Shown: positions 17,926 through 33,495, counted from the stretch's first letter. The stretch: DNA of 33,537 nt from a virus (IMGVR_UViG_2734482570_000003), one strand, 5' to 3'. Translations and numbers: made by a program. Notes: generated by a model from the sequence alone, not told the origin.

Positions 17926-17941
17926 TGCGACCGTGGTCGCA
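17926..17941. repeat. sopC-like centromere palindrome TGCGACC-GT-GGTCGCA (copy 2; extends to 22-bp CTGTGCGACCGTGGTCGCACAG)
   Basis: Perfect palindrome; exact reverse-orientation match to copies 1 and 3. Confidence 0.6.
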
Positions 17942-17947
17942 CAGCTT

Positions 17948-18175
17948 TTAGAAAGTTGCCTGCTTATATTCATCGGTCAAAGAATATCGACCAGATCCGC
18001 TACGCTTTGCAACCCCAAAACAGATCATCTGTTCGATGATAAATTCAACGGCAGCTTGACTCAAAAAACAGGCTTCGCTTAACTCTTTCAGGGAAATGCG
18101 TGGGTATCCACGCATAACACATTCCACACTCAGGGCCGCTTCAGTCATATTTCCACGAATTTCATTAATATTCAT
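17948..18175 (-). CDS. Small winged-helix DNA-binding protein (hypothetical)
   Basis: 75 aa; helix-turn-wing pattern ...ISLKELSEACFLSQAAVEFIIEQMICFGVAKRSGSGRYSLT. Confidence 0.5.
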   Translation of the reverse strand: MNINEIRGNMTEAALSVECVMRGYPRISLKELSEACFLSQAAVEFIIEQMICFGVAKRSGSGRYSLTDEYKQATF

Positions 18176-18410: not shown

Positions 18411-18575
18411 AATATCCTCCAAATTCATATAGTTAGTGGGTTATTACCCCTCAATGACACGAACTGTAACTCTGCCAAACGAACACATCCAGTGTTATTT
18501 TTCGCTTTTTAGTGAAATTTTTGATTTGCGTTGTTTTCTTGTTTTGGTGTATTTTATGGATATGGAGGCTATAAT

Positions 18576-18887
18576 ATGTTTAACGTGATAACCCACCCTG
18601 CAGCACTGGATGAACTGCTTGAACTACCAGATGATTTGCGAGGTCGCATGACCAGATTAATTGAGCGACTGGAGAAAGAAGGCAACAAACTGAAGATGCC
18701 CCATAGCCGTGTAATAGGTGGAGGGCTTTTTGAACTACGAGTAGGGGATAAAAACATCGCAAGAACGCTGTACGCCTACGCGACTGGTAACGAAATTTAT
18801 CTATTGCATGCATTTGTAAAAAAGACACAGAAAACACCGGTGAAGGCTATCGAAATCGCCAGAACTCGCCTGAAGGAGATGAACTGA
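18576..18887 (+). CDS. Type II toxin, RelE/ParE superfamily (HigB / Gp49-like)
   Basis: Track ORF 18531..18887; GGAGG 8 nt before the ATG at 18576; Gp49/HigB-like sequence pattern; toxin precedes antitoxin. Confidence 0.7.
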   Translation: MFNVITHPAALDELLELPDDLRGRMTRLIERLEKEGNKLKMPHSRVIGGGLFELRVGDKNIARTLYAYATGNEIYLLHAFVKKTQKTPVKAIEIARTRLKEMN

Positions 18888-19174
18888 TGAAAGCGAAAGG
18901 CATCCCGTTTAACGAAGTAAAAGAAAAACTCCTCAACACTCCAGAAGCCGTCAAAGGATATGAAGAGGCCGACAAAGAGCTGGAGATGGTCGAAATGTTA
19001 TACGAAATGAGGGAAAGAGCAGGTTTAACGAAATCAGCTCTGGCTGAACGAATGGGGTTGCGACCGTCAGCCATCAGCCGCCTGGAAAGCAATCCTTTAG
19101 GGGCAAGTATGAAAACTTTGGCTAAATATGCTCATGCCTGCGGCGCAACCATCGATATTCGCGCTGTTTATTAA
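18887..19174 (+). CDS. HTH XRE-family antitoxin (HigA-like)
   Basis: 95 aa; HTH segment LTKSALAERMGLRPSAISRLE; start overlaps the toxin stop (TGATG). Confidence 0.7.
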   Translation: MKAKGIPFNEVKEKLLNTPEAVKGYEEADKELEMVEMLYEMRERAGLTKSALAERMGLRPSAISRLESNPLGASMKTLAKYAHACGATIDIRAVY

Positions 19175-19216: not shown

Positions 19217-19420
19217 TCAATGATGTGAACGCTCAACAGCGATAGTTTGCTGACAATGCTGGGCAATCTCTCGCGACATGTTGATGAGTCGTGAAACCTC
19301 ACCAATATGTAGGCTGGCTTCTGGAGAAGCCAGGGTGACGCTAACCAGATCCAGAACGGCGTCAATATCTCTTAAATTTGAATCGAGTTGTTCAAGAGTT
19401 GATACGGCTGCTTCAGACAT
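19217..19420 (-). CDS. Hypothetical protein
   Basis: 67-aa ORF convergent with the toxin-antitoxin pair; no recognisable motif. Confidence 0.3.
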   Translation of the reverse strand: MSEAAVSTLEQLDSNLRDIDAVLDLVSVTLASPEASLHIGEVSRLINMSREIAQHCQQTIAVERSHH

Positions 19421-19502
19421 TAAATCTCATACCATTTAACTAAAAAAGGTTATTTATACTGTATAAAATTACAGGGTAAAACTCAAACTTTACGGTCAAT
19501 TT

Positions 19503-19745
19503 TCAATGAATTAACTGCGTAAACTGCTGTGTGACCCGATACTTATGCTCTCTCCCTATGCCACGATCAACTTTCTCAAGAAGTCCAGTACGGACAGCAG
19601 AATCAAGCATCCTTTTAACAATTCTGCTATTTAACCCAACATCAAAAGAAAGCATCGAAGCGAAAACAAAACCATCACCACCATCAGAAAAGCTCTTTTC
19701 GCTCCGTTTTCGTATCATTTCAAAAAGCAATGCCTTTTTATCCAT
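19503..19745 (-). CDS. Small winged-helix DNA-binding protein (hypothetical)
   Basis: 80 aa; GGAGG RBS; wing-like RGIGREHKYRVT. Confidence 0.5.
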   Translation of the reverse strand: MDKKALLFEMIRKRSEKSFSDGGDGFVFASMLSFDVGLNSRIVKRMLDSAVRTGLLEKVDRGIGREHKYRVTQQFTQLIH

Positions 19746-19752
19746 TTATCCC

Positions 19753-19766
19753 TCCGTGACCAGTCA
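19753..19766. repeat. Palindrome family B CGTGAC-CA-GTCACG (copy 1 of 3)
   Basis: Perfect 6-bp inverted arms with a 2-bp centre, immediately upstream of the RBS of the 19503..19745 gene. Confidence 0.5.
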
Positions 19767-20090
19767 CGCTTTGAGCGCAAGTTTCAGCCTCGTGGTTGTA
19801 AGGTGGCATGACCCTTCGCCATCAAAAATGCATTCTGAAACAGGCATTTTTTGACCACATCGCGGGCAAGTAGTAGATAGCTGCTTCTGCAGCTCCTTAT
19901 AGTTTTTCCTGATCAGCAAACCAATGACTTCGTTCTCCGAATATGGAACTCGCCCTGGTCTACGCAATACACAAATTTCCCCCAACATACGTAACTCGTC
20001 AGGTTCTAGAATCCAGTCCCGTCTTGATGTGCCTTCCTTCTTCAACCGTTCCCTGCGTCTCCTTTGCCGTTCTGCCGGTGTCAGCGCCAT
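19764..20090 (-). CDS. Hypothetical protein with Arg-rich N-terminus and Cys cluster (zinc-ribbon-like)
   Basis: 108 aa; CPRCGQKMPVSECIFDGEGSCH. Confidence 0.45.
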   Translation of the reverse strand: MALTPAERQRRRRERLKKEGTSRRDWILEPDELRMLGEICVLRRPGRVPYSENEVIGLLIRKNYKELQKQLSTTCPRCGQKMPVSECIFDGEGSCHLTTTRLKLALKA

Positions 20091-20105
20091 AAATCCTCCT
20101 GAAAA

Positions 20106-20636
20106 TTACTTAACCCAATTAACTACACCGCCAGCGGCCACAACCGCCCTTTCACAGTCACGCTCATATCTCAAAGGTTGAAATACACCATCAATAAAAT
20201 ATTTATCTCCACCAAACGCTGCAGGAAGTGAAACAGAAAACTGAATATGACCATCCGGAGTTACCGGAGAGTTGCCAGCCAGTCTACGCAACACAGCCTT
20301 AACGGCCTCAATACGGTCATCATCAACTTTTTCTACAATATTGGAATTTAAATACTTCGAAGCCTTGCTATGCCAATCGCTGGTTTTAGGGTCTTGTCCA
20401 TCCATCAAACGCCAAGCTTCAGCGATTAACTCATAGCCAGTGACAGTGGCTTCCTGCGCATCACCAATAAGTCGTGTAATCTCTCTTTCAAGCCGACCGC
20501 CTAGCTCTGTTTTAGTGCAATGTTCTGACCAATCGCCAGCCTCAAGCAGCGCGAGAATGCTTAAAATATCGTCCAATAGAACGGTAGTATTATCGACTTC
20601 CTTCTGAAACTCACCGGCTACTGATTTATGCATCAT
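20106..20636 (-). CDS. Hypothetical protein sharing an AGNxPVTPDG segment with the 20847..21596 protein
   Basis: 176 aa; no other recognisable motif. Confidence 0.5.
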   Translation of the reverse strand: MMHKSVAGEFQKEVDNTTVLLDDILSILALLEAGDWSEHCTKTELGGRLEREITRLIGDAQEATVTGYELIAEAWRLMDGQDPKTSDWHSKASKYLNSNIVEKVDDDRIEAVKAVLRRLAGNSPVTPDGHIQFSVSLPAAFGGDKYFIDGVFQPLRYERDCERAVVAAGGVVNWVK

Positions 20637-20935
20637 TCGTCATCCTCATCTGAGTCATCCTCATCACAGGATGAGAGTAGTGGGTTAGTCATTCGCCCTA
20701 CTTGAGTGGCGTAGCCACGCCGACAGAGATTGCGCAGCACACTGTATATTTCGAACATCTCGGTTCGTTCATCACCAACATCAAGCTCAGATGCTATAGC
20801 GTGGCATTCAGTCGCGAGAGCCGATATTTTCTGAAATAACTCTGCTTTATTCACTCTTCGACTCCTGCGGCGGTTCTGGTAGTGGCATCCAGTGAGTTGC
20901 TTGCTCAATACCATTACCCGGCTTAATCGTTGCAT
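20633..20935 (-). CDS. Hypothetical protein with acidic C-terminal tail
   Basis: 100 aa ending CDEDDSDEDDE; start uncertain. Confidence 0.35.
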   Translation of the reverse strand: MQRLSRVMVLSKQLTGCHYQNRRRSRRVNKAELFQKISALATECHAIASELDVGDERTEMFEIYSVLRNLCRRGYATQVGRMTNPLLSSCDEDDSDEDDE

Positions 20936-21596
20936 CTCCGCGCCGAAAGGTGCTTCCGGTATAGCGTGCGGAGCATATTAGCGGTTCAACCAGAGAGCTA
21001 TCGAAATTCACCGAAATAAGCACGTTCTGGCCCTTTTCAGGCATTCGCTCACTACAGCTTATCCAACCATCCGGAGTTACCGGATAGTTGCCAGCCTCAT
21101 ACGCGACCCTTATCCAGTGCATAAGCATTTCAGTACTTACACATCCACAATCAACATCAATTTTGTCATGCTGCTGTTCCAGCCATTGCTCAAAAGTTAA
21201 CTTGTAAGTTTGGCTTACAGGTTTGGCTTCCAGTTCTGCTATGTGATTTTTGGCTGATTCCAACTCAATCGACAATTTTTCCAACTGCTCTTTATGATTT
21301 TTATATTCCTGATATGCGTGCCAAGACTGACCTTTGCGCACACTATCAGTGATATCAGTAATCTGTTCTGGTGTTAGCGTGGTCAGTGGCTGTGATGGGA
21401 AAATAAGCACTTTCCCGGAATCCCAATCAAAACCAGCGTGAATTGACTGAACCTCAACTGAAGGTGTTGAACCAATGCTGCCAGGCGAATGAACAACGAT
21501 TGTTACATCCATATCGCGACGATGGCTGTGGTTGTTGGACAAAATACGATTCAACAAAATACGATTCACCAACTCAGAAAATTTAGAAAATTTCAT
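20847..21596 (-). CDS. Hypothetical phage protein with DUF551-like C-terminal domain
   Basis: 249 aa; coiled-coil middle; C-terminal ...ATHWMPLPEPP resembles DUF551 as remembered. Confidence 0.5.
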   Translation of the reverse strand: MKFSKFSELVNRILLNRILSNNHSHRRDMDVTIVVHSPGSIGSTPSVEVQSIHAGFDWDSGKVLIFPSQPLTTLTPEQITDITDSVRKGQSWHAYQEYKNHKEQLEKLSIELESAKNHIAELEAKPVSQTYKLTFEQWLEQQHDKIDVDCGCVSTEMLMHWIRVAYEAGNYPVTPDGWISCSERMPEKGQNVLISVNFDSSLVEPLICSARYTGSTFRRGDATIKPGNGIEQATHWMPLPEPPQESKSE

Positions 21597-21961
21597 GCTG
21601 ATTCACCTTTCTCTGCTCTCTCCTGTCGGAACATCACTATCATCAGGTCGCCTTTTGTCGCTATCTTGGCTGTTGTGCCTGGCTCAATGCGGCTAAGTTC
21701 AAATGCGTCATAGAACGCCTCCAACGCTTTCTGGCGTTTTTCCTGTTTGCGGCGCTTTCCCCACTGCTTTAGAAAAACAGAGGCCGCCCACTTCCCCGCA
21801 CTGAACATGATGTAAAACCAACCGAGAAGTGCCAGACCGGTATTTAGGGCCGTATCGATCGTTATCGTGGTGTCGATATTCACTACGCCACCTCCTGAAA
21901 ATTTCCCTGATAAAACGCCAACACACGCTGCATAACTTCGCTCTTCCGACAATCGTGACAA
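21593..21961 (-). CDS. Hypothetical protein, possible single TM segment
   Basis: 122-aa ORF overlapping both neighbours; hydrophobic LALLGWFYIMFSAGKWAASVF; true start unclear. Confidence 0.3.
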   Translation of the reverse strand: MSRLSEERSYAACVGVLSGKFSGGGVVNIDTTITIDTALNTGLALLGWFYIMFSAGKWAASVFLKQWGKRRKQEKRQKALEAFYDAFELSRIEPGTTAKIATKGDLMIVMFRQERAEKGESA

Positions 21962-22302
21962 ATCATGTTCAAGCGCCTGTCGTAACGACGTATTTCTCCG
22001 TCAGGTAATGACCAGATAAGGTCTGGATCAACCACTACCGATTTCTTCGGCTTTACTCTTGATAGTTTTTTACGGGCGTTTTGCCAGTCCTTGCGTGCTT
22101 GTGCAGACAGAAATATCCCGGAGCCAGAGATATACAAATCACCGCTGGCAGCAAGCTCTCTTGATAAACGACTAACAGCACACCGGCTAATACCAGTTTC
22201 ATCCGCAAGTTGCCTAACCGTTCCTCGTCCATTCAGGCGCACGAGTTCCACAATTTGTTTATTCAGTTCTTCCCTCTGTTCTGGTGTAAAAGCCTTTGCC
22301 AT
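21883..22302 (-). CDS. Putative winged-helix DNA-binding protein
   Basis: 139 aa; HTH-like RQLADETGISRCAVSRLSREL; C-terminal CHDC. Confidence 0.45.
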   Translation of the reverse strand: MAKAFTPEQREELNKQIVELVRLNGRGTVRQLADETGISRCAVSRLSRELAASGDLYISGSGIFLSAQARKDWQNARKKLSRVKPKKSVVVDPDLIWSLPDGEIRRYDRRLNMICHDCRKSEVMQRVLAFYQGNFQEVA

Positions 22303-22901
22303 TACGATTCTCCTTGCCCTTTTACAAGACGGGAGAAAATTGCGGATACATATTTAGCCTGATGAATAGCATCAGCCAGGGCATTGTGTCGTTCGCCATC
22401 AAATGGCATATCTTTTTTAGGATTAAAACCAATAAACTGACCAAGATTAACGATTGTTCGAACATCCTGATCATTAAAATATTCCCACGGACAGGCTAAG
22501 CCAACGCGCTCATAAGCACCGCGTAAAATTACATTATCGAACGTTGCTCCATTTCCCCATACTTTCAATTTTTTTAAATTACATGCATGGCAAGTAATAA
22601 AGTGTGATAATTCAAAAAGTGCATCCTTAATATCAAGGGCATCATTAGTACAAATAGCGGCTCTGGCTTACTTGCTCTGTTTCAACCACCATAAAATGGT
22701 ATCACCATCGGCGATACCACCATTCAACATCGAGCTTCTGAGATTCACTGGCACATAAAAAGTAGGACCTAATTCCTCACTTTCTGGAGAAAAAAACACT
22801 GCCCCGATAGAAACAATTGGAGCACATGTGTTAGTACCCATTGTTTCAAGGTCAATCATTACATCAGACCGTTTCCTGTCGTAAATAATCTGATTAGTCA
22901 C
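22302..22901 (-). pseudogene. DEDDh-type 3-prime-5-prime exonuclease interrupted by a single in-frame TAA
   Basis: ORFs 22668..22901 and 22302..22568 are in the same frame; the 33 codons between them are open; Exo I-like motif (MIDLETMGT) is in the first part and Exo III-like motif (HNALADAIHQAKY) in the second. Confidence 0.6.
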
Positions 22902-22924
22902 GAATAATTCTCCTCAACGTTTAT

Positions 22925-23152
22925 CTATACCCAAATTTTCTGTTGATATGTTCTGGATGGTTTTGGCGTTCTTTCTGATTCAGGTAAATGAACATAAACG
23001 CAATATCCATCACCTAAAAAATCAGAACGAACAACCAGAACTTTCTTACCACGCCGCCGATAAGTATCTGAAAGACGCTCTGCTTCATCATGCGTCATCG
23101 GCCCCTGCTTAAATGGCGTTATTTTCATTTTCTTGTGCGACCACGGTCGCAC
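22925..23152 (-). CDS. Hypothetical small protein
   Basis: 75-aa ORF; start uncertain. Confidence 0.3.
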   Translation of the reverse strand: MRPWSHKKMKITPFKQGPMTHDEAERLSDTYRRRGKKVLVVRSDFLGDGYCVYVHLPESERTPKPSRTYQQKIWV

Positions 23153-23429
23153 CCTCTCTGATTTCCAAGTAACGCTTAATCCAAAGATTTTCTATATGCT
23201 TATTACCTGGCTGATTTGATAAATACCAATCGGCAATTACAGACTGCTTATTACTATCTGGTCGTGTCCTGTAACCACAAGTTGGACACCAGATAACATA
23301 TTCATTTCTTACCCCCGAATACCTTAATTCTGGCTTCGACGGTTTCCTGAACATAACTTGTTTACAAAGACAGAATGGCACTTCCTGCCCGATGGCGTTT
23401 GATGATTTCACTGCGCTTCTCCGCCGCAT
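23109..23429 (-). CDS. Hypothetical protein with CxC...CxxC motif
   Basis: 106 aa; FCLCKQ ... WCPTCGY. Confidence 0.4.
   Translation of the reverse strand: MRRRSAVKSSNAIGQEVPFCLCKQVMFRKPSKPELRYSGVRNEYVIWCPTCGYRTRPDSNKQSVIADWYLSNQPGNKHIENLWIKRYLEIREGATVVAQENENNAI
23136..23151. repeat. sopC-like centromere palindrome TGCGACC-AC-GGTCGCA (copy 3)
   Basis: Identical 16-mer to copy 1; lies in the 3-prime end of the 23109..23429 ORF. Confidence 0.6.
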
Positions 23430-24072
23430 TTAATAATGCAGTTCGATTTAAGCTCAGACATCGCGACTTAATTAAAAGCCAGCGTTCTTTATAATCTTGT
23501 CTCCAGCTATCAATAGATATATTCAGTAGAAAACTCAGATGCCTGTCCTGTTCTCTCTCATCAACTGCCTCAGCACACGTAAGTTCTGATTTAACCTGTT
23601 GTGCCGCGTAATAAATCAATTTCCGCATGGCTTTTTTCGTGGAGGCCTTCATTTTTTTAAAGCCGCCCCCCGAATGAGCAACCAGAAAATCAAGCCATAA
23701 CCACTGACAAACAATCACATCATTGTTGTAATCAGGCTTGCATCCGTAGCAATAATAAAGCCAGGCTGATTCCTCGTTATTCAACTGACCAATAGCCCTG
23801 CGCCAGCTGGCGCTCTGAAAATCAATATCAGTGAGCAACATTGATGATTGTTTAAATGTTTTCCCCTGGTGGAATCTAACCGGCTCAGCAGGAACGGACA
23901 CTTCGTATGAGTTATCATCCCCCACACTGATTGACCGGACTGGTTTATTGTTAAACCGTCCTGATCTACCGAGACGCATCTGCTCAAGCTGGACCTCCAG
24001 AATGCCACGCTGGCGATAATGAACATCAGCCAATGCCGTAGAGACGCAGCTGCGTATATACTCAAGCTCCAC
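23362..24072 (-). CDS. Possible late-gene antiterminator Q-like protein (assignment by position only)
   Basis: 236-aa ORF immediately downstream of cro, where N15-type immunity regions carry Q; no motif verified. Confidence 0.35.
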   Translation of the reverse strand: MELEYIRSCVSTALADVHYRQRGILEVQLEQMRLGRSGRFNNKPVRSISVGDDNSYEVSVPAEPVRFHQGKTFKQSSMLLTDIDFQSASWRRAIGQLNNEESAWLYYCYGCKPDYNNDVIVCQWLWLDFLVAHSGGGFKKMKASTKKAMRKLIYYAAQQVKSELTCAEAVDEREQDRHLSFLLNISIDSWRQDYKERWLLIKSRCLSLNRTALLNAAEKRSEIIKRHRAGSAILSL

Positions 24073-24283
24073 GCTTACGACTCTCCTTAATCGACTGCTT
24101 TACCCGCCGAGTTGTAAAGTCACTCTTCAGCTTATAAGCAGTACGAACTTCAATATCGCTTTGCCGCAATGAAGGAATCTCTCCAGCGGTTAACCATTGG
24201 TAAACAGCTCCGGGTGTTACACCTACCCCTGCCGCTGCTTTTTCTACACTGCCAAAATGGCGAATAAGTTCTTCTGGTTTCAT
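24062..24283 (-). CDS. cro: Cro-like HTH regulator
   Basis: Track ORF 24062..24310; probable start MKPEEL; HTH AAAGVGVTPGAVYQWL; divergent from the repressor gene. Confidence 0.7.
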   Translation of the reverse strand: MKPEELIRHFGSVEKAAAGVGVTPGAVYQWLTAGEIPSLRQSDIEVRTAYKLKSDFTTRRVKQSIKESRKRGA

Positions 24284-24310
24284 GTTGTTATTATAAACAA
24301 TAAACAACAA

Positions 24311-24352
24311 TTAAAGCCAGCTATAATAAATAAATTTTATAGCCAGCTATAA
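24311..24352. promoter_or_regulatory. Two operator-like 16-bp palindromes in the cro / cB divergent control region
   Basis: TTATAGC-CA-GCTATAA (perfect) at 24337-24352 and TTAAAGC-CA-GCTATAA (one mismatch) at 24311-24326, centres 26 bp apart; AT-rich -10-like hexamers overlap. Confidence 0.65.
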
Positions 24353-24374
24353 GAAGATCATTTATGATTACAGT

Positions 24375-24971
24375 ATGAAAACACGAGGCGAACGACTGAA
24401 AGCACGCCGTTTAGAGATGAAGCTGACGTTGCGAGAAGTTGCTGAGGCTGTCGATATCTCTATAGCAGGCGTCCAAAACTTAGAACGTGGCGACGTAATG
24501 CCGTCACTGGAGATAGGTATTGCCCTGGCTAAGTGCTTACGCAAGCCAGTGCATTGGGTGCTATATGGGACAGAATATGACCCTGATCGCATTCCTGTTA
24601 TTGGCACAACTGAAAGTGGGCCGGATGAAGAGTGGAAGCCGGGACAGGTTCCAAATACTGAGCGATTCCTGCCATTCATCAGCCAGCGCAATACTGTGTA
24701 TGCGTTAACTATCAGCAATCTTACGCAGGGAAACTATCAGCCAGGCGATTTTCTCCTGGTCGATTCTGCGCTGGAACTGGTCCCCGGCGAGGATGTTCTG
24801 GTTCGTGATACTGCAGGAAATATCACTATCCAGCGCCTGGCCCGTTTTGATGATGAAAATTACTATCTGGATGGAACAAACTCACAACGCGCCATCTTCA
24901 GGAAAAGCGATCTTGAATTTGTTCACCAAATAGTCGGAACGATCAAATCATTCATGGTTGAGGGTAGATGA
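24375..24971 (+). CDS. cB: Prophage repressor (CI/CB-like; N-terminal HTH, C-terminal LexA/S24-like domain)
   Basis: 198 aa; HTH LTLREVAEAVDISIAGVQNLERG; C-terminal GDFLLVDSALELVPGEDVLV resembles an S24 fold; divergent from cro with operators between. Confidence 0.8.
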   Translation: MKTRGERLKARRLEMKLTLREVAEAVDISIAGVQNLERGDVMPSLEIGIALAKCLRKPVHWVLYGTEYDPDRIPVIGTTESGPDEEWKPGQVPNTERFLPFISQRNTVYALTISNLTQGNYQPGDFLLVDSALELVPGEDVLVRDTAGNITIQRLARFDDENYYLDGTNSQRAIFRKSDLEFVHQIVGTIKSFMVEGR

Positions 24972-25073
24972 CTTAATACGGGGTTTATTGTTTGCTGTAA
25001 ATCTGGTTTAATGCAGGGCATATGTTCTGTGGGTTGACTCAGGTTACAGCAGCAGAAAAAAGACGAAAAAAAA

Positions 25074-25100
25074 CCCGAGTCGGCAAACTCGGGTCCTTTT
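25074..25100 (+). terminator. Rho-independent terminator after the repressor gene
   Basis: CCCGAGT-CGGCAA-ACTCGGG followed by TCCTTTT; preceded by an A-run. Confidence 0.65.
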
Positions 25101-25216
25101 CAGGAAGCAGCCACAGTAACGCGACGGATTCCGTCAATTCAAGATGCGTTTATTGTGGCTGCTCCTGCGGATTTTTTCAACCCGAAAAAACATAATTCGC
25201 ATGGAATGGCTAAAAA

Positions 25217-28200
25217 ATGACATTAAACGATTTCTATGCGGATCGCTTTGGCAGCGATCCGTTCTCGCTAATTGAAGCAGCACGGGATGAACTAACCGAG
25301 CTGGCACAGATGGCTGGTATCAACTGGCCTGCCTGTTCCGACAACATCCAACTCAACCCTCGCGGGGGGGTTGAGCGTTACTCTTCATACAATAAAACAT
25401 CTCCAGAAGCTCTCGAAAAGAGCCTGAAAGGACGCGTAGAAATTTACTCCAGGCTGGAACACAGCAAAGGGATTGATTACCCGTTCATTAACTTCGTCCA
25501 TAAAGGCAGCGATGCTGGCTCATGGAGCGGTTTCTCCTTCCTGTTTTCTGAATATCGCCGTGAGCAACAACGGAATAATGCGACCGTGGTCGCACAACCG
25601 GAAGAAGAACGGGAAAGAATAGAACGTCAGGCCGAAGCACGTCGTCGCCGTGAAGAACAAAAACGAATTAATGACCTGAAAAACAACCAAATGGACCATG
25701 AACGTTTGCTGGGATGGCTGGCATTCCACAGCGCGTGGGAACATGCTCCGGCTGAAGACGGCTCATGGCCATATGCGATTAAAAAAGGTATTCGTGACGT
25801 TTTTAGTTCATGTGATGTGCGTCGCGTGACCAGTCACGACAGTGCGAAATGGAGCCGGGGGCCAACCACATATATGGCTATCCCTCTGGCTCACCTGGAC
25901 AGTCGTTATGATGGTCGTATTGTGGGTTGGCAGCGAATCGACAAACAAGGTGGGAAATACCAGACCAGCGCAGTAACCAGCGGCGATTTCGTCGGTGCCT
26001 GCTTTGTTATCGGTGAGCTGAAAGGGGCGCAAAACATCGCTGTTACAGAAGGTTTTGCTACTGGTGCATCCATCTGGCTTGCCACGAAAAAAGATAAACG
26101 CTTTGACGCTGTGGTTGTCGCTGTATCCGCTAACAACATGGTTCATGTTGTGGAACAACTGGTAAACATGTACCCGGCGGCAAAAATCACCTGCGCACTG
26201 GATAATGACCGGAAATCTGCCACAGAAGGAAAAGGGAATACCGGCCTGCGGACTGGCTATGAAATCTTATCGAAATTCAACGATGTCCGCTGCGTCTATC
26301 CAACTTTTGAAGACGATCCGCAAATGGAGTGCAGTGACTTCAACGACCTGCACAAACTACGTGGACTTCGTGAAACAGCACGTCAACTATTTGCAACAGC
26401 AAACCGCCTGAAAACCGGTACTGATTTGCTATCTCTGACGCTCAACCGCCTGAAGACAATTAAGCGGGATAACCGTCGTACTTTTGCCAAAGAGCTGCTG
26501 AGAGCGGTGGATATTGGCATGCTAACCTGTCCGGTTCCTAACAGTCCGTCAGATTTATTTAACATGTTCTGCATCGTTCTGCGTGAAATGGGACTGGAAA
26601 ATATCTATCGTGCTACGGTAAAAGACCACATTGCCCGTCGCCTGAATAAAAAGTGCCGTATTGCCCAGGCTCCGCGCTCTTTCAGCGAACGCATAACTGA
26701 TCCCAATAAACGACCTCAACATATCACCTATAAGCGTTTTGAAACTTCGGTAATGACCGATGATGTCCTGAAGTACGTGCAATCACTACAGGGGATAGTC
26801 ATCGTCCGTGCTGGTATGGGTTCCGGCAAATCTACTGGATTGTTACGACCGTTAATGCATAGCTCAGAACGTGGTATCTCTGTTGCTCACCGTGTCTCCC
26901 TTATTGGTGGCCTGTGGGAAATGATGACAGAAGGAAAAGGTGTAAAAGCCGATATCCTGCACTATCAGGATCCTGGCTATCAGGAAATGGCTCCATACGC
27001 CAGTAAACTGACCATCTGCATAAACTCGATTGTTAAAAACTGCTGGCAACCGTTGATGCGCCAGCACGACTATTTTGGCTTTGACGAGGCCACACAAGGG
27101 CTACGTGCCGTTCTTTCCGGTCGGGCTATGGAAAACCCGGTGGCTGTATTCAATACGCTAATTGACGCGCTGGCCAGAACGGAACAACACCCAATCATGG
27201 TGGATGCTGATGCGAACGATCTGCTGGTTGACCTGGCTGAACTAGCTATGAAACGCCGTGAAGAACTAGGTTTACCGGCATGGCTGCAGATCCACGTAAT
27301 TGAATTACCTGTTGATGTTCGCAACCGCGAAACAGGTGAGCCAATCCGGGTTTTTTATACAGAAAAAGATCGCATCATGACCGAGGTGGTGAAAGCTGTA
27401 TCGGATGGCGAAAAAATCATGTTGGCCACCGACAGCTCCACCTTTGCAGAAGATGTGACAGCCACCCTGAGAATGCATTTTCCTGGTAAGAAATTTCTGT
27501 GTGTAAACCAGAAAAACAAACCAGAGCCAGAAGTTGAAGCATTTACCAATCAACCGAAAAAGATGGTCAAAAAATACGACGGCCTGATTTATAGCCCGTC
27601 TATTTCATCCGGCGTGTCGATTGAGCAAAAACATTTTGACCGTCATTTCGGCATGTTCTGTGGTGAAGTTGTACCCAGCGACGCAGTGCAAATGCTACGC
27701 CGCGACCGTACAGCAAAAGAATTTATTATCGGCTTTGATAAAGCTCGTGCAAAACGTGAAACTGACCCGCAAAAAATAGAACGAGCATTCGCCCAGGCAT
27801 TGCTTGCTACTGCAGGTATGAACGGTGAACTGACGGATGTCGTTTTCGATGGCGACCGTATATCAATGGGGGTGGCCAATACCGACTTTACCAGGATGAA
27901 AATTAAAGCAGCCGCAATTGAAGCGTCTGCACGTAACGACTACGCCAGCAACATGATCTGCATCATGCACAGCGACGGTTATAAGATATCGCCGCTGGCC
28001 ACCGATTATGCTGCAAATGATATCGGTAAAGATCTGCGTAAAGAAGCGCGGGATATTGTGTGGGAACAGACACTGGATCTGCATCTCAATACAGAAACTC
28101 CACAAGAATCAGAGCGTGAAGAACTGCTAAAAAAACGCGCGCTAACGCTTGAAGAACAGGCAAAACTTGTCCGCTGGGATATTGAGAACGAACTGAAACT

Positions 28201-29212
28201 ACCGGTTGAAGAAGGCACGCTGAAATTCTATTTCGATGGTGCTCGAGACAAAGTTCGCCGCTATGAAACAATGCTTTTAGATGAGGTAACAGCTCGTCGT
28301 TACGACCGGGAAGAAGCAGCCATCAATTTTACCTACGCATACCGTCAGGCGGGACAGTGGCAATATTTTGTAGTGACCGCAATGACTCGCGAGCAGGCTG
28401 ATGATGTCTTTAAAACTAAATTCCCTGGAATAATCGACTACAAGGTAAAAGCTACTCCTACTGTTGAAGTCGGGGCGCGCGGTTTCTATGCGCTTAAATC
28501 AGCAACTCTCCGGCAGTACTTTATCGACTGCGGTATCAACCCTGAGACTATGACCGGCGAGGCGACTCAGGAGCGTCTCAAATTTGCTCGAGATAACCTC
28601 ATGACAGCCGAACGCCGTGACCTGTTGAATAACGTTCTGCACATTGGTGGTTTTATGACGCCAAAAGGGAAGCCTAAAGTGCCGGAAGCGTTGTTTAAAA
28701 ACATTTGCGACTCTCTTGGCCTTAAAACAGGTAAACGTCGCGGCAGAGACGGCGATAAGCGTCCAACCTTGCGTTTTGTTGAGCCTGAATCAGCGGCATT
28801 TATGCTGGATATTCTTGCTCAGCGTCAGAAAGATGGCCTAACCCTGAAAACGCGTAAAGCCGAGAAGACCGCCATCGAAATGGATCGCGATTTGGATCTC
28901 AATATATATATGGATGATAAAACGCGATCCACAAACGAGCAGGTTCAAAACGCCCCTCATTCAGTAATTTCTGAGGCTTTGGCCGTGTTGCCAGTGGCTG
29001 TACCTGAGTCCTGGGCGATGAGTGCGCTTTCCAGTGAGGAGTTGGCCACCATGTCATCATGGTCATCAGCCAGCATAGCTATGACGTTTGCATCCCTGTA
29101 CCTCACAGAGTTCATGGATCACCTTTCCAGCAATGAGCTGCGGCGGTTACGTGAATACATTACGGGGAATAGCTCATGCAGCTACGAAGAGCAGGGCGCT
29201 TTCTATGGGTAA
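25217..29212 (+). CDS. repA: Replication protein RepA (N-terminal TOPRIM primase domain plus P-loop helicase domain)
   Basis: 1331 aa; TOPRIM-like motifs (AVTEGFATGAS, ALDNDRKS); Walker A AGMGSGKST and Walker B-like FGFDEA; adjacent to cB as in N15-type phages. Confidence 0.85.
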   Translation: MTLNDFYADRFGSDPFSLIEAARDELTELAQMAGINWPACSDNIQLNPRGGVERYSSYNKTSPEALEKSLKGRVEIYSRLEHSKGIDYPFINFVHKGSDAGSWSGFSFLFSEYRREQQRNNATVVAQPEEERERIERQAEARRRREEQKRINDLKNNQMDHERLLGWLAFHSAWEHAPAEDGSWPYAIKKGIRDVFSSCDVRRVTSHDSAKWSRGPTTYMAIPLAHLDSRYDGRIVGWQRIDKQGGKYQTSAVTSGDFVGACFVIGELKGAQNIAVTEGFATGASIWLATKKDKRFDAVVVAVSANNMVHVVEQLVNMYPAAKITCALDNDRKSATEGKGNTGLRTGYEILSKFNDVRCVYPTFEDDPQMECSDFNDLHKLRGLRETARQLFATANRLKTGTDLLSLTLNRLKTIKRDNRRTFAKELLRAVDIGMLTCPVPNSPSDLFNMFCIVLREMGLENIYRATVKDHIARRLNKKCRIAQAPRSFSERITDPNKRPQHITYKRFETSVMTDDVLKYVQSLQGIVIVRAGMGSGKSTGLLRPLMHSSERGISVAHRVSLIGGLWEMMTEGKGVKADILHYQDPGYQEMAPYASKLTICINSIVKNCWQPLMRQHDYFGFDEATQGLRAVLSGRAMENPVAVFNTLIDALARTEQHPIMVDADANDLLVDLAELAMKRREELGLPAWLQIHVIELPVDVRNRETGEPIRVFYTEKDRIMTEVVKAVSDGEKIMLATDSSTFAEDVTATLRMHFPGKKFLCVNQKNKPEPEVEAFTNQPKKMVKKYDGLIYSPSISSGVSIEQKHFDRHFGMFCGEVVPSDAVQMLRRDRTAKEFIIGFDKARAKRETDPQKIERAFAQALLATAGMNGELTDVVFDGDRISMGVANTDFTRMKIKAAAIEASARNDYASNMICIMHSDGYKISPLATDYAANDIGKDLRKEARDIVWEQTLDLHLNTETPQESEREELLKKRALTLEEQAKLVRWDIENELKLPVEEGTLKFYFDGARDKVRRYETMLLDEVTARRYDREEAAINFTYAYRQAGQWQYFVVTAMTREQADDVFKTKFPGIIDYKVKATPTVEVGARGFYALKSATLRQYFIDCGINPETMTGEATQERLKFARDNLMTAERRDLLNNVLHIGGFMTPKGKPKVPEALFKNICDSLGLKTGKRRGRDGDKRPTLRFVEPESAAFMLDILAQRQKDGLTLKTRKAEKTAIEMDRDLDLNIYMDDKTRSTNEQVQNAPHSVISEALAVLPVAVPESWAMSALSSEELATMSSWSSASIAMTFASLYLTEFMDHLSSNELRRLREYITGNSSCSYEEQGAFYG
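25579..25594. repeat. sopC-like centromere palindrome TGCGACC-GT-GGTCGCA (copy 4, inside repA, encodes ATVVA)
   Basis: Perfect palindrome within the repA coding sequence. Confidence 0.6.
25825..25838. repeat. Palindrome family B CGTGAC-CA-GTCACG (copy 2, inside repA)
   Basis: Exact 14-mer match to the 19753 copy. Confidence 0.5.
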
Positions 29213-29396
29213 TGATTGGATATTATCTTTGTGTCTCTTGCTTTGTGTGTTCCATCTATGGTTTTGGTTCATAGACCGAAAGTCTCACAAGGAAAACATG
29301 AAGGCCAGGAAGGCGATGTTTCGTGGTGAACAATTTGCGCAGACTTATCGTATGTGGAAACGTTTCTATCGTGAATTTTCGGTGAACAGGGAGTAA
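29203..29396 (+). CDS. Possible small membrane protein overlapping the repA stop
   Basis: ATG inside the final repA codons; about 63 aa with one TM helix (WILSLCLLLCVFHLWFWFI) and a basic tail; part of track ORF 29088..29396. Confidence 0.3.
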
Positions 29397-29400
29397 AAAT

Positions 29401-29727
29401 ATGTCTACTACTGCATTTTTGGACAAACTTGATTACCGTCAGCTGCAGTTCTGCCGGGATGAATGCGAACGACGCATTAGGGCTATCCAGGAGGAAGAAA
29501 AAAAGGTCGCCTGGGCTGTAACAGATCGTGGCCTTATCTTTGGCTGGTTCCGTACGGAGGATTATCTGAAAGCAGTGGAATTATTGGCGCGTAAGGCTGC
29601 TGAGCGTTGGGAACTAGCCGACAAGGAAAACCCGGAGACGAAGTATGAACTGAATCTCTACATCGAGGGCAACCGTCTACCATTGTCAGAGTATAACGCT
29701 TTGTTTGCTGATGGTGAGTGGGGTTAA
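29401..29727 (+). CDS. Hypothetical protein
   Basis: 108 aa; GGGAG RBS about 9 nt upstream. Confidence 0.55.
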   Translation: MSTTAFLDKLDYRQLQFCRDECERRIRAIQEEEKKVAWAVTDRGLIFGWFRTEDYLKAVELLARKAAERWELADKENPETKYELNLYIEGNRLPLSEYNALFADGEWG

Positions 29728-29729
29728 AA

Positions 29730-30125
29730 ATGGCTGTTCAATCATACAAATACGAATCCCCTTTGGATAAGGGATACATTCGTATCAAGTTAAGTCGTTC
29801 TCAGCATAAGGCTATTTTTAAGGTAAGGAAAATTCGCATATTGGATGCGTATGCGTATTACTACAACGGTGAAAATGTTGTTGTTGAACACTTTCTTGCA
29901 CGATGGTTTGTAGCTCTGATTTTTGTCCCTCTCCTGTTAATTGGTACTTTTGTGGATGGTTTTCCTAGTACATGGCGGGAGATAAAGAAAGGCCTATTCC
30001 CGCATAAGTACGGCAGATTTTCGCAAGATAGCTGGCGAGTTATACCTGGTAAACATTCTGTAGATGAGCAACCGATTGTTGATTCCTGGTTGAATCGTAT
30101 GGCTGATGCTAAAAAAGTTGATTGA
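29730..30125 (+). CDS. Hypothetical membrane protein (one TM helix)
   Basis: Track ORF 29718..30125; start MAVQSYKYE; TM WFVALIFVPLLLIGTFV. Confidence 0.5.
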   Translation: MAVQSYKYESPLDKGYIRIKLSRSQHKAIFKVRKIRILDAYAYYYNGENVVVEHFLARWFVALIFVPLLLIGTFVDGFPSTWREIKKGLFPHKYGRFSQDSWRVIPGKHSVDEQPIVDSWLNRMADAKKVD

Positions 30126-30152
30126 ATTGTGATGACTGTTACAGGAGATAAA

Positions 30153-30440
30153 GTGAAGAGTTTTATTTTTGTTTTATGTTTTGCCTTTTCTGCTGCAGTT
30201 TATGCCCAGGAAGATAGCATTTCTGTTATTAACTCATCAGCGGAGCTTGCATGTAAAAATAATCCCGATGCTGCATCAAAAGAGTCATGCAAAGAGCTGC
30301 TCCTTTCGACGGCTGCTTTTGCTTCTGAAAATGCAAAATTTTATTCAGCCTTTTGTCGCGGCTATGTTAAGGACGAAGATAAAGAAAAATGTGATGATGC
30401 CGGTAAGTTAGTTAGGTATTTCCAATCTCTTAATCAGTAA
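30153..30440 (+). CDS. Small secreted Cys-containing protein (signal peptide)
   Basis: AGGAG RBS then GTG start; signal peptide MKSFIFVLCFAFSAAVYA / QEDS; four Cys in the mature part. Confidence 0.55.
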   Translation: MKSFIFVLCFAFSAAVYAQEDSISVINSSAELACKNNPDAASKESCKELLLSTAAFASENAKFYSAFCRGYVKDEDKEKCDDAGKLVRYFQSLNQ

Positions 30441-30501
30441 TGGCCTTTGATTAACGATCAACTTCTGATCACTCGTTCAAGCAAACTATAAAAACACCTG
30501 T

Positions 30502-30521
30502 CCCCGTGACTGGTCACGGGG
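30502..30521. repeat. Palindrome family B, extended copy CCCCGTGAC-TG-GTCACGGGG (copy 3)
   Basis: Perfect 9-bp arms; core CGTGAC-TG-GTCACG is the reverse orientation of the other two copies; just upstream of the putative small-RNA promoter. Confidence 0.5.
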
Positions 30522-30542
30522 TAAAATGTCTTTGCAAATTAT

Positions 30543-30572
30543 TGACGTGTGCGTCGTTTTGACGGTAAAGTT
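30543..30572 (+). promoter_or_regulatory. Putative sigma70-type promoter (TTGACG - 18 bp - TAAAGT) for the leader or small RNA
   Basis: Hexamers read by eye; spacing approximate. Confidence 0.3.
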
Positions 30573-30574
30573 TA

Positions 30575-30653
30575 CTCCGCTACGGTAAATCCCGTAGCCG
30601 GGCGTAGGAACCCGAGTAAATGAAGCGCACAACACGCGCCAGCGTGTTTTTTT
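30575..30653 (+). ncRNA. Candidate small regulatory RNA / leader transcript (c4-type antisense RNA analogue)
   Basis: Non-coding stretch with hairpin GCTACGG-TAAATC-CCGTAGC and intrinsic terminator ACACGC-GCCA-GCGTGT plus T6 (30632-30653); GCGTAGGAAC at 30602 recurs at 30768 in the downstream leader. Confidence 0.3.
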
Positions 30654-30816
30654 GTGTGTAAAATCTGCGTACACCAAATTTATGGTGGCTCAGATGGGGC
30701 AGCTTTTAGCTGGCCGGTTTCTTCGTTTACCGGTATTCCTACCCCCGTCTGGGCTACCGCCATATAGAGCGTAGGAACTCTGGTGGTAGCACGACCAATT
30801 AAACGGAGTGCATACC

Positions 30817-30981
30817 ATGTTCAAATTCAAATTTGCGGCAATCGTTCGCACAGACAAAAAGTCACACATCCATCATCTTTCCACCATCGCGTCATCTGAA
30901 CGGGAAGCTCGTCGCCAGTTCGCCAGCCGGTTTGTCCTGGTATTGTCTGCCCGTATTCCGGTGCGCGAGGTGGCTGCATGA
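30817..30981 (+). CDS. Small protein, first gene of the putative antirepressor-type operon
   Basis: 54-aa ORF, below the track threshold; GGAG RBS about 9 nt upstream; stop overlaps the next start (ATGA). Confidence 0.45.
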   Translation: MFKFKFAAIVRTDKKSHIHHLSTIASSEREARRQFASRFVLVLSARIPVREVAA

Positions 30982-31211
30982 ATCAGGTAAAAATGAACAC
31001 TGTTGGCCTGCTGGAATCGTTGGATGAACGTCTGGCTCAGGTCTATGCGCTCGTATCATCAGCCCATCGGACAATCTCCAGTTGTGAGGCGTCGATTTAT
31101 CTCTCAGAAGCAGGGAAACTCCTTCAAATTGCGTGTGAGCTAACACACGAAGCACAGGGTTATTCAGCATCGCTCTCGTCGCAATTGCTGCACGATAAGG
31201 AGGCTGAATGA
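30978..31211 (+). CDS. Hypothetical protein, second gene of the operon
   Basis: 77 aa; translationally coupled on both sides by ATGA overlaps. Confidence 0.5.
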   Translation: MNQVKMNTVGLLESLDERLAQVYALVSSAHRTISSCEASIYLSEAGKLLQIACELTHEAQGYSASLSSQLLHDKEAE

Positions 31212-31372
31212 GCGCGTTAGCAGTATTTTCCTTTCAGGAAGAGCATCAGGTTCGTGTAGTGATGATTAACGGCGAACCGTGGTTTGTTGCATCTGATGTG
31301 TGTATGGCGGCGGGTATTGATTCTACGGCCATCAGAAAGTTGGATGAGGACGAAAAGGGGCAGGCGAGGTAG
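31208..31372 (+). pseudogene. Truncated antirepressor (Bro-N / AntA N-terminal domain only)
   Basis: 54-aa ORF MSALAVFSFQEEHQVRVVMINGEPWFVASDVCMAAGI... carries the Bro-N signature (GEPWFVA-DVC) but stops after about 54 codons, where full antirepressors run about 180-250 aa. Confidence 0.5.
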
Positions 31373-33458: not shown

Positions 33459-33495
33459 CTAAAATTTGTTCCTTGACTTTGTTCTAAAGATCAGC

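Follow-up and report, generated by a model that had tools for sequence, protein, structure and literature searches.

Three conserved palindromes in an N15-like telomere phage-plasmid are putative operators of a gp46-like protein encoded just upstream of the first copy

Results

The analysed window, a 33,537-nucleotide stretch of viral DNA (IMGVR_UViG_2734482570_000003), is an N15-like telomere phage-plasmid. A search with CGTGACNNGTCACG retrieved exactly three exact copies of the palindrome CGTGAC-NN-GTCACG, at 19755-19768, 25825-25838 and 30505-30518, with the central dinucleotides CA, CA and TG, respectively. The three-copy family reported in the initial annotation is real, as the 14-bp palindrome had three matches in the window versus none in 100 dinucleotide-preserving shuffles of it. 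A search of the window for a fourth copy of the core GTGACNNGTCAC found none. The positions previously given for the second and third copies were correct, while the first copy starts at 19755 instead of 19753. The three copies (sites 1-3) lie among the following genes and features:

14917, 17927, 23137 and 25580: sop-type sites GCGACC-NN-GGTCGC (in N15 at 33481, 35932, 41126 and 45563)
19217..19474 (ORF 19217..19420), minus strand: AntA-like 67-aa ORF, probable antC, with a LexA box (phrog_6301/10889, as AntA)
19503..19745, minus strand: gp47-like gene, 80 aa, directly downstream of site 1 (phrog_13995)
19755..19768: site 1 ("home" site), CGTGACCAGTCACG, overlapping the gp46-like TGA stop and abutting the gp47-like RBS
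19764..20090, minus strand: gp46-like gene, homologue of N15 gene 46, 108 aa, predicted ribbon-helix-helix protein and putative palindrome binder
25217..29212, plus strand: repA, 1331 aa, hosting site 2 and the sop-type site at 25580
25794..25799: conserved CGTGAC half-site in repA, 31 bp upstream of site 2
25825..25838: site 2, CGTGACCAGTCACG, repA codons R-V-T-S-H-D, residues 203-208
30505..30518: site 3, CGTGACTGGTCACG, centred at approximately -67.5 from the start of the anti-immunity transcript
30542..30571, plus strand: Pa-like promoter TTGACG-18-TAAAGT of the immA-type operon, its -35 lying 23 bp downstream of site 3
30579-30652, plus strand: isrK-like leader, terminator at 30631-30648 (Rfam RF01394/RF01695 search of 30579..30764)
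30678-30764, plus strand: C4 antisense RNA (Rfam)
30808..30981, plus strand: icd (ORF and PHROGs)
30978..31211, plus strand: antA (ORF and PHROGs)

The first copy had been placed beside the RBS of a small gene, and it indeed abuts the GGAGGG RBS of the 80-aa ORF; the earlier description missed that the TGA stop (19764-19766) of the 108-aa ORF lies inside the site. The same arrangement was found in N15 (39268), phiKO2, 48ST307, KpLi5 and the Enterobacter phage. The palindrome does not fit the LexA box CTGT-N8-ACAG, and the only LexA box of the region, CTGTATAAAATTACAG at 19459-19474 in the promoter region of the probable antC, is a different sequence; AntC of N15 is described as LexA-controlled (PMC3121763). 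No promoter overlapping site 1 or site 2 was called in the window.

The second copy lies within repA, as annotated, at a measured distance of 245 bp from the sopC-like site GCGACCGTGGTCGC at 25580. It was identical in all 47 loci of the N15/phiKO2 clade, which had been sampled via RepA and thus drawn without regard to the motif. The five repA codons across the site showed no synonymous changes in 34 distinct sequences, while most of the codons around it varied in 10-24 of the 34, which indicates selection on the DNA. The half-site codons (ATT CGT GAC) were likewise invariant in 34 repA sequences, and an intermediate clade (L243) carries a full second site 32 bp upstream of its repA site, at approximately the half-site position. 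The RepA protein of PY54 has a 4-aa insertion exactly at the position of site 2.

The third copy was correctly placed upstream of a small-RNA promoter, and the 9-bp arms ascribed to it (CCCCGTGAC/GTCACGGGG) are present in the window but are not conserved in relatives. The Rfam scores over 30579..30764 were 62.5 bits for RF01394 and 73.6 bits for RF01695. No indels were found between site 3 and the promoter hexamers in 24 distinct sequences, and the centre (TG or GG) and the outer bases of the site varied in relatives. Site 3 also marks the end of the repA-gene33 transcription unit.

The scan of related telomere phages proposed in the initial annotation revealed that the motif is positionally conserved. 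It occupies the same three places in N15, phiKO2 and 47 of the 47 relatives of the N15/phiKO2 clade sampled through RepA: the gene-46 stop/gene-47 RBS, repA codons 203-208 and a point 23 bp ahead of the -35 hexamer of the isrK/C4-icd-antA promoter. The N15 copies are located at 28549, 33236 and 39268, and the complete genomes of N15, PhiR46_1, phiKO2, 48ST307, KpLi5 and the Enterobacter phage contain exactly three core sites each, a motif that is not annotated in the N15 and phiKO2 records. At sites 1 and 3 the centre (TG, GG, CC) and the outer base vary, and the GTGAC/GTCAC arms never do. The recognised 12-bp unit appears to be GTGAC-N2-GTCAC, with fixed arms, two free central bases and outermost bases that are merely preferred. 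Both the motif and the gp46 homologue were absent from 21 PY54-like or other telomere-phage loci and from the whole PY54 genome, in the case of gp46 even at a family-HMM cut-off of E<=10; a gp47-like homologue was kept in 11 of the 21 loci. The motif is separate from the sopC-like sites, with different arms and other positions, and from the CB/Cro operators, which also occupy other positions; in the window and in N15, none of its copies coincides with a sop site. As previously proposed, the motif behaves like the target of a separate DNA-binding protein.

The linkage between the motif and gp46 extends beyond the N15-like phages. An exact 14-mer search identified four non-telomere viral contigs with the motif at the 3' end of a gp46 homologue (30-38% identity) and no other N15 gene in common. 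The distant gp46 homologues collected by a peptide-pattern search carried, in nine out of nine cases, exactly one GTGACnnGTCAC per approximately 6 kb, at the 3' end of the gene. For the subfamily of 110-118 aa, the site was present at the gene 3' end in 78 of the 80 loci and absent from the remaining two: 68 sites overlap a TGA stop in the N15 register and ten lie 5-195 bp downstream of a gene ending with TAA or TAG. These loci contained 104 sites in 442 kb, versus 0.42 expected. The gene and the site were paired likewise in Cronobacter, Pantoea and Serratia prophages, phiV10 and ZF40; a Morganella family member (L193) lacked a site at the gene end and had one 4 kb upstream instead. The link thus spans gp46 subfamilies of 30-45% identity. 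The reading of the motif varies by subfamily (K-A-stop or N-VTGH-A frames, or intergenic), so its conservation is not a protein-coding effect. The extra sites of phiV10 and one further locus (L295) follow the order gene stop, site, terminator. A terminator-like hairpin follows the home site in 18 of 70 loci, in comparison to 5 of 350 controls, and the downstream contexts are heterogeneous, comprising a LexA-box promoter, a small hairpin, a terminator or an RBS. The gp46 family comprises 236 cluster representatives, has no Pfam entry and is hosted by epsilon15-like, Mu-like and lambdoid prophages of Enterobacterales and Vibrio.

The AlphaFold2 (AF2) model of the gp46-like protein (pLDDT 85.6) shows a core composed of an extended segment followed by two helices, and this predicted fold has the beta-alpha-alpha core of the ribbon-helix-helix (RHH; MetJ/Arc/CopG) superfamily, with the extended segment not called as a strand in what is a monomer prediction only. 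The Foldseek matches include TCP-domain/DNA complexes. The remaining predicted parts are a basic N-terminal helix and a Cys-rich, zinc-ribbon-like C-terminal part. The protein is therefore predicted to be a small RHH DNA-binding protein and not a winged helix. The curated RHH families of Pfam (RHH_1, Arc, CopG and others) gave no above-threshold match with the window protein, four distant members or the 55 members of A2; one database member of the gp46 family bears a precomputed PF10723 (RepB-RCR_reg) flag. A PDB profile search for relatives of the gp46-like protein by sequence found no solved structure and detected no homology to MatP.

Discussion

The sites travel with the gp46-like gene, and are therefore most likely the binding sites of that regulator rather than winged-helix targets. 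We propose that the three palindromes are probably operators of the gp46-like protein encoded just upstream of the first copy. The link of this protein to the sites is drawn from co-occurrence and from the modelled fold; the binding itself, its stoichiometry and its regulatory sign are inferred. A unit with fixed arms, a free centre and preferred outer bases would suit a single RHH dimer on the dyad as well as two dimers on inverted N-GTGAC-N heptads. Counting against the operator reading are the unusual placing of an operator at the 3' end of the gene for its own regulator, the varied downstream contexts, the lack of a promoter overlapping site 1 or site 2, the family members without a site at the gene end, and the arms shared with matS in hosts that encode MatP.

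Two small winged-helix proteins, gp51-like (17948..18175) and gp47-like (19503..19745), had been named previously as candidate binders. Were this so, site 1 would be the autoregulatory operator of gene 47. Site 1 does abut the gp47-like RBS, the gp51-like protein gives weak winged-HTH Pfam matches, the AF2 topology of the gp47-like protein is compatible with a winged helix, and both genes occur in every motif-bearing telomere phage examined. However, neither co-varies with the motif as gp46-like does: gp47-like homologues were found in the 11 motif-less loci noted above and in PY54, which also encodes a gp51-like protein, and outside the telomere phages the motif stands beside gp46 homologues in neighbourhoods that lack homologues of gp47 and gp51. 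Members of the clade can carry a substituted gene after site 1 (41-53% identity) and still retain the site and gp46, and the winged-helix label of the gp47-like ORF comes from a low-confidence model (pLDDT 59). Binding by either protein is thus improbable.

It is also unlikely that a host protein, such as MatP or a SlmA-type factor, binds the sites and lets the phage hook into host nucleoid organisation or segregation. To our knowledge, all hosts of the gp46 family (Enterobacterales, Vibrio) encode MatP, and N15-type prophages are plasmids that need segregation. MatP of the E. coli Ter macrodomain bridges distant sites; like the motif, these are few, dispersed and single, and are not promoter-centred operators. 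The arms GTGAC and GTCAC are identical to those of the matS consensus GTGACRNYGTCAC (PMC6907758). In contrast to matS, a 13-bp GTGAC-RNY-GTCAC sequence with a 3-bp centre, every one of more than 200 motif copies has a 2-bp spacer, and other GTGAC/GTCAC spacings were essentially absent from the genomes scanned. Moreover, PY54-like telomere phages, whose hosts also have MatP, lack the motif, and in integrated prophages, which have no segregation problem, it keeps to the 3' end of a single phage gene. The proposed binder is phage-encoded, about 108 aa long, and differs from MatP in its N-terminus and Cys-rich tail as well as in the lack of detectable sequence homology.

We consider it very unlikely that a known N15 protein recognises the motif, either SopB at a second class of centromere or RepA, TelN, CB or Cro. 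The motif does resemble the sop centromere (SopB-sopC of N15 and F) of the same genome: the sites of both families are scattered, perfectly palindromic over 14-16 bp and built around a 2-bp centre and a GAC/GTC core, and each family has one site in the 5' part of repA, 245 bp apart. The sop sites are nevertheless a four-member family of their own in the window and in N15, with other positions, the arms GCGACC/GGTCGC and GAC/GTC cores 4 bp apart, in comparison to 2 bp in the motif. They go with SopAB, and PY54-like phages keep homologues of SopAB, RepA, TelN, CI and Cro but not the motif, which is found in integrated prophages having none of these proteins. The CB/Cro operators of the N15 immB region belong to the cB-cro and cB-repA intergenic regions and are annotated elsewhere (34056-34094 and 34729-34793), with no motif copy there.

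Least credible of all is an action in RNA or as single-stranded DNA hairpins (terminator or attenuator stems, RNase sites, translational control downstream). In its favour, pairing of the arms could give a stem of 5 bp closed by a 4-nt loop, site 3 of the window has 9-bp arms and a folding z of -2.6, and terminators often follow the home sites. Against it, the folding of sites 1 and 2 does not exceed that of shuffled sequence (z of -1.1 and +0.17), the arm extension of site 3 is not conserved, no T-run follows any of the three window sites and the terminator scan calls nothing at them. The arms never vary and thus show no compensatory changes; it is the centre that varies, a pattern expected of a dyad site for a protein and not of a loop-specific RNA element. 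The sites are also found in both transcriptional orientations.

Among the known systems, the RHH repressors (Arc and Mnt of P22, CopG, omega of pSM19035, ParG) resemble the gp46 system, a small protein with a predicted fold of this class and a putative short dyad-symmetric target. The targets of omega are paired 7-bp heptads, W-ATCAC-W, in direct or inverted arrangement; the 14-mer can be viewed in a similar way, as an inverted pair of N-GTGAC-N heptads whose flanking positions are free. Omega connects copy control with partition and toxin-antitoxin promoters; the motif sites likewise link repA and the anti-immunity locus. Unlike these repressors, gp46 belongs to no Pfam RHH family by sequence and has the additional basic N-terminal helix and Cys-rich C-terminal domain, its sites are single and kilobases apart instead of arrayed over a promoter, and its home site lies in its own stop codon, away from its promoter. 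The position of the home site recalls RepA-CIS-oriR of the IncFII plasmid R1, in which a cis-acting DNA-binding protein has its target just downstream of its own gene. In both, the coding sequence runs directly into the actual or putative target, and a terminator often comes next, an arrangement that would favour nascent-protein loading in cis. R1-type proteins are replication initiators at an origin, whereas nothing indicates an origin function for the gp46 sites, and the gp46 family is mainly one of integrated prophages, in which it lies where the early and late operons meet.

The gene and its site make up a module, with the home site in or just after the gene's own stop codon and extra copies elsewhere in the genome. 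In N15-type phages, cro and Q precede gene 46 in the early rightward operon, and gp46 would be expected to appear once this operon is on. It could then occupy the junction between its own gene, gene 47 and the LexA-controlled antC, the full site and half-site 600 bp into repA, and the site at a fixed position of approximately -67 upstream of the isrK/C4-icd-antA promoter. Provided that binding occurs, our preferred reading, with a chance approaching even, is that gp46, once bound, serves as a roadblock to transcription, or as an insulator, where transcription units end; this would limit read-through into gene 47/antC and the anti-immunity operon and would damp repA. The main alternative effect is direct activation or repression of Pa. 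A broader proposal, possible but on balance doubtful, is that the gp46 family forms a new "3'-anchored" RHH-zinc class, with the operator in its own stop and the nascent protein loading in cis at the operon end as a programmable insulator or roadblock of transcription, perhaps bridging to one or two distant copies and dividing temperate-phage genomes into transcription units; the telomere phage-plasmids would thereby have their early lytic expression coupled to plasmid replication through repA and to the antirepressor switch.

Alongside the sop centromeres and the CB/Cro operators, the motif gives the N15 map a third family of regulatory DNA sites. N15 serves as the model for linear phage-plasmids, and linear cloning vectors derived from it, which carry repA, are in wide use. 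The N15 genes 41-47 had no assigned function; gene 46 now has a probable one, as a predicted regulator. The analysis also defines a gene-plus-site module for an unclassified protein family of Enterobacterales and Vibrio prophages, in which an operator embedded in a stop codon would be a useful annotation marker. In N15-like phages, the three sites would tie the early lytic operon directly to the replication gene and to the anti-immunity operon.

Conservation of the palindrome in N15-type telomere phages

Scanning the window with CGTGACNNGTCACG, which describes the palindrome CGTGAC-NN-GTCACG, returned three matches, and none was obtained over 100 dinucleotide-preserving shuffles. The relaxed 12-bp core GTGACNNGTCAC revealed no additional copy in the window.

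Palindromes in the window
Site 1, 19755-19768, centre CA: directly upstream of the GGAGGG RBS of the 80-aa ORF 19503..19745 (minus strand)
Site 2, 25825-25838, centre CA: within the 5' part of repA, 245 bp from a sop-type site
Site 3, 30505-30518, centre TG: 23 bp upstream of the -35 of a TTGACG-18-TAAAGT promoter
Sop-type palindromes, GCGACC-(AC/GT)-GGTCGC: 14917-14930, 17927-17940, 23137-23150 and 25580-25593

The contexts that the initial annotation had described for the three copies (the RBS of the gp47-like gene, repA close to a sop-type site and the promoter of the anti-immunity locus) were all recovered; the first copy itself was real, with its start at 19755, two bases later than the 19753 previously assigned. 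A feature absent from that annotation is the TGA stop at 19764-19766, which falls within site 1 and ends the upstream ORF 19764..20090 (108 aa, minus strand), a homologue of N15 gene 46 (gp46-like). The palindromes are indeed distinct from the sopC-like sites, which form a separate family, with four copies each in the window and in N15. The 9-bp arms noted for site 3 are present in the window and are not kept in relatives. The sop-type palindromes of the window match those of N15 (33481, 35932, 41126 and 45563), as well as the 'putative plasmid partitioning sites' of the phiKO2 annotation.

The window, an N15-like telomere phage-plasmid, shares 97.6% identity with Escherichia phage PhiR46_1 and approximately 76% with N15, with phiKO2 and with Klebsiella relatives across the replication/immunity region; its orientation is opposite to that of the N15 record. 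The motif scan of related telomere phages, suggested in the initial annotation, found both presence and position to be kept. The three N15 copies were exact matches:

28549: upstream of the cA/immA promoter
33236: in repA
39268: at the gene 46 stop and gene 47 RBS

Exactly three copies each, in the same places and with the same centre orientation, were found in PhiR46_1, phiKO2, the Klebsiella phages 48ST307 and KpLi5 and an Enterobacter phage. The PY54 genome contained none.

To escape circularity, 69 viral loci were collected through RepA similarity alone. Of these, 47 belong to the N15/phiKO2 clade, with RepA identities of 74% or more; every one had the repA site, invariably as CGTGACCAGTCACG, and site 1 was found in every locus whose stretch includes a gene 46 homologue, once with the centre CC. 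Site 3 lay upstream of icd/antA, with the centre TG or GG and the outer G sometimes replaced by A. The GTGAC/GTCAC arms did not vary across the sampled loci. Between site 3 and the promoter hexamers, no indel occurred in 24 distinct sequences, although the intervening 9 nt were freely variable. The synonymous-site test was run on 34 distinct repA sequences picked through RepA, as an earlier motif-picked set was circular. The codons CGC GTG ACC AGT CAC were unchanged in 34/34 sequences; most neighbouring codons showed third-position variation in 10-24 of the 34, and only about 8% of the other non-Trp/Met codons were invariant. A second invariant run, ATT CGT GAC (25791-25799), forms a CGTGAC half-site 31 bp upstream of site 2, and the PY54 RepA has a four-residue insertion precisely at the site 2 position. 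The invariance of the repA codons, the fixed half-site and the unvarying arms together indicate that the sites are under selection as DNA.

One locus from a clade between N15 and PY54 (L243:6752-6797, IMGVR_UViG_3300036778_000064; RepA 65%) carries two full sites in repA, 32 bp apart and with the centres GT and CC, the upstream one lying approximately at the half-site position; the stretch available for this locus does not include the gp46 gene. A fourth site in contig L046 and the five in YDC107_1 (CP025712.1, L003) proved not to be extra sites, as these records contain inverted duplications of the telomere-proximal region. Long inverted duplications of the telN-repA region, also seen in other IMG/VR contigs (L205/L207), probably reflect assembly read through the hairpin telomere, which inflates the site count (five versus three).

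The palindrome tracks gene 46

Both the presence/absence table and the RepA-based sample showed co-occurrence of the motif with the gene 46 homologue. All 21 PY54-like or other loci without the motif also lacked gp46, and the family HMM (E ≤ 10) detected no gp46 in these loci or in the whole PY54 genome. The initial annotation had proposed as candidate binders two small winged-helix products, gp47-like (19503..19745, minus strand) and gp51-like (17948..18175). A low-confidence model of the former (pLDDT 59) has a topology compatible with a winged helix; the phylogenetic profile, however, contradicts both candidates, since the motif tracks neither gene: PY54 retains homologues of gp47-like (40% identity) and gp51-like (32%), and 11 of the 21 motif-less loci retain a gp47-like gene.

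Matches to the exact 14-mer in the viral collection fell in N15-type fragments, in chance singletons and in four unrelated contigs. In 4/4 of the latter, the motif lay at the 3' end of a gp46 homologue (30-38% identical), with no other N15 gene nearby. The family was then sampled beyond telomere phages by protein only. Distant homologues in Mu-like contexts, with GemA and Mor downstream, carried exactly one GTGACnnGTCAC per locus of approximately 6 kb, at the 3' end of the gene, in 9/9 cases. The motif was present in 78 of 80 loci of the 110-118-aa subfamily (104 sites in 442 kb versus 0.42 expected); the TGA stop lay inside it, in the N15 register, in 68 loci, and the 10 loci with a TAA or TAG stop had it 5-195 bp downstream. 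The same gene-end pattern was seen in Cronobacter, Pantoea and Serratia prophages, phiV10 and ZF40, with one Morganella prophage as the exception (site 4 kb upstream). One or two secondary copies lie kilobases from the home site, as the copy at the gene 3' end is called here. The centre dinucleotide was AT in most of the subfamily, and CG, TG, CT, GT or GG elsewhere. N15-type genes translate the motif as K-A-stop, Mu-like members translate it as N/C/S/A-V-T-G-H-A, and in others it is intergenic; it is therefore conserved as DNA and not via the protein sequence. The gene and site form a module, in which the home site is embedded in, or just after, the stop codon of the regulator. We consider this evidence from outside the telomere phages decisive for the predicted link to gp46.

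Other proteins were also weighed. The arms of the sites equal those of the matS consensus, GTGACRNYGTCAC (PMC6907758), which would fit recognition by the host MatP. The spacer of the sites is nonetheless invariably 2 bp, and the motif is missing from PY54-like phages and tied to one phage gene; despite the likeness in the arms, it is not matS. A role of the palindromes as RNA hairpins or terminators is opposed by the folding of sites 1 and 2, which is no better than that of shuffles, by the missing T-run after the sites and compensatory variation, and by the unconserved arm extension of site 3. SopB, CB/Cro, RepA and TelN either have sites of their own or are retained in motif-less phages. AntB was rejected, as it is truncated to 54 aa in the window phage though the sites are perfect, and so was a recombination hotspot or module boundary, as the mosaic breakpoint between the window and the relative L202 lies approximately 85 bp beyond site 1.

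The gp46 protein family

The gp46 family comprises 519 members in a 90%-clustered database (236 representatives at 50% identity), nearly all of them single-domain proteins of 105-135 aa. A profile-free protein search reached only relatives with at least 68% identity; a profile search reached farther. The protein matches phrog_536 ('transcriptional regulator'), and GenBank phage records label its relatives, such as phiV10 p55 (epsilon15 p49-like) and ZF40 gp22, 'hypothetical' or 'transcriptional regulator'. No Pfam family and no solved-structure relative was found by sequence, and the literature searched for N15 gene 46 or the epsilon15/phiV10 regulators contained nothing relevant. In the AlphaFold2 model (pLDDT 85.6, from 55 sequences), a basic N-terminal helix leads into an extended segment and two helices, with a Cys-rich loop and a short C-terminal helix following; invariant residues include R8, R13, G20, R43, P45, Y50, C75, C78 and C95. 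Judged by its modelled fold, gp46 belongs to the RHH superfamily, while by sequence it falls in no curated family.

Predicted action of gp46

We propose GTGAC-N2-GTCAC as the sequence bound by gp46. A single dimer would sit on the dyad, or two dimers would each occupy one of two inverted N-GTGAC-N heptads. The omega repressor recognises its W-ATCAC-W heptads in such a paired manner; the likeness is one of logic, and the gp46 sites are not omega heptads. The predicted system would work like other RHH repressor/operator pairs. Only 15 bp separate gene 46 from the ORF upstream of it in N15-type phages, and this gap contains no promoter for the gene. With gene 46 also located downstream of cro and Q, gp46 would be expected to be produced once the early rightward operon is active. 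Of its three targets, one would lie at the boundary with gene 47 and the antC-like gene under LexA control, one in the 5' region of repA, and one at the end of the repA-gene33 unit, at the upstream edge of the anti-immunity promoter (Pa).

The copies in phiV10 and related prophages are found where transcription units end, each following a gene stop and preceding a terminator. Among 70 distinct contexts, 18 had a terminator-like hairpin after the home site, compared with 5 of 350 control windows. Based on this arrangement, our preferred reading is that bound gp46 may act as a roadblock or insulator. The fixed -67 position at Pa would also suit direct promoter control. The heterogeneity of the contexts downstream of the home site argues that this site may not be dedicated to any single promoter beyond it and may serve the regulator itself, e.g., through cis loading. 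A fixed geometry with the -10 at +15 after the home site was discarded, since only 4 of the 68 distinct contexts showed it.

Elements neighbouring the sites

The promoter adjacent to site 3 starts an operon with two Rfam-identified RNAs:

30579-30652: isrK-like leader, starting at this promoter
30678-30764: C4 antisense RNA, followed by icd and antA

It is an anti-immunity operon of the P1 immI/N15 immA type. Most members of the clade keep the block AAACTATAAAAAC (30472-30494, aagcaaactataaaaacacctgt) just upstream of site 3. Its minus strand includes a -10-like TATAGT; a leftward promoter built on it would run antisense to the repA operon and have site 3 at approximately -33. Such a conserved promoter was rejected, as the -10 is lost in several Klebsiella phages. 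The AntB (BRO-N) homologue (31208-31372) is equally short in PhiR46_1 and has approximately 260 aa in N15, phiKO2 and YDC107_1. Between repA and site 3, 30129-30440 encodes a 103-aa signal-peptide protein ('Spackle exclusion protein' in PhiR46_1), which is absent from N15 and phiKO2 and thus represents a variable cargo gene of the repA operon. Near site 1, a consensus LexA box, CTGTATAAAATTACAG (19459-19474), precedes a 67-aa ORF (19217-19420, minus strand) of the same PHROG as AntA, probably an antC antirepressor; its N15 homologue at approximately 39619 is not annotated in NC_001901. A HigB/RelE-like toxin and HTH_3 antitoxin pair (18531-19174) is convergent with the gene 46-47-antC unit, like N15 genes 49/48.

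Further elements accompany home sites in prophages. A second conserved palindrome of 17 bp, ATTACCAAAA(T/C)GGTAAT, was found at L191:6406-6422, at L195:6676-6692 and in many of the sampled loci L292-L331. In epsilon15-like prophages, it lies downstream of the gp46-type site and terminator, just upstream of the terminase small-subunit gene, and might be a packaging or late-promoter element. In the L267-L291 group, a small hairpin, CCTG(A/T)TGCAGCAGG, conserved in one prophage subgroup, lies approximately 10-25 nt after the home site, between it and the Shine-Dalgarno sequence of the next gene (probable terminase small subunit). Approximately 15 distinct prophage contexts (L310:3417-3746, L314, L332, L337 and about 10 others) have, within 5-6 nt downstream of the home site, a TTGACT-17-TATACT promoter overlapping a perfect LexA box. 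This promoter drives a 109-aa protein with the N-terminus MGFPSPAxDYVE, which has no Pfam hit and which we take to be UmuD'-like. An antirepressor link through these promoters was dismissed as not specific, the driven gene looking like an SOS moron.

No annotation of the motif was present in N15, phiKO2 or the other records examined. Literature searches with the motif strings returned only unrelated mammalian papers; older subscription N15 papers lay outside the search, so earlier notice is possible. What appears new in the predicted system is an uncharacterised RHH-Cys family, an operator within the regulator's own stop codon and dispersed secondary sites. N15 gene 46 and its relatives thereby gain a testable predicted function and a defined predicted operator.
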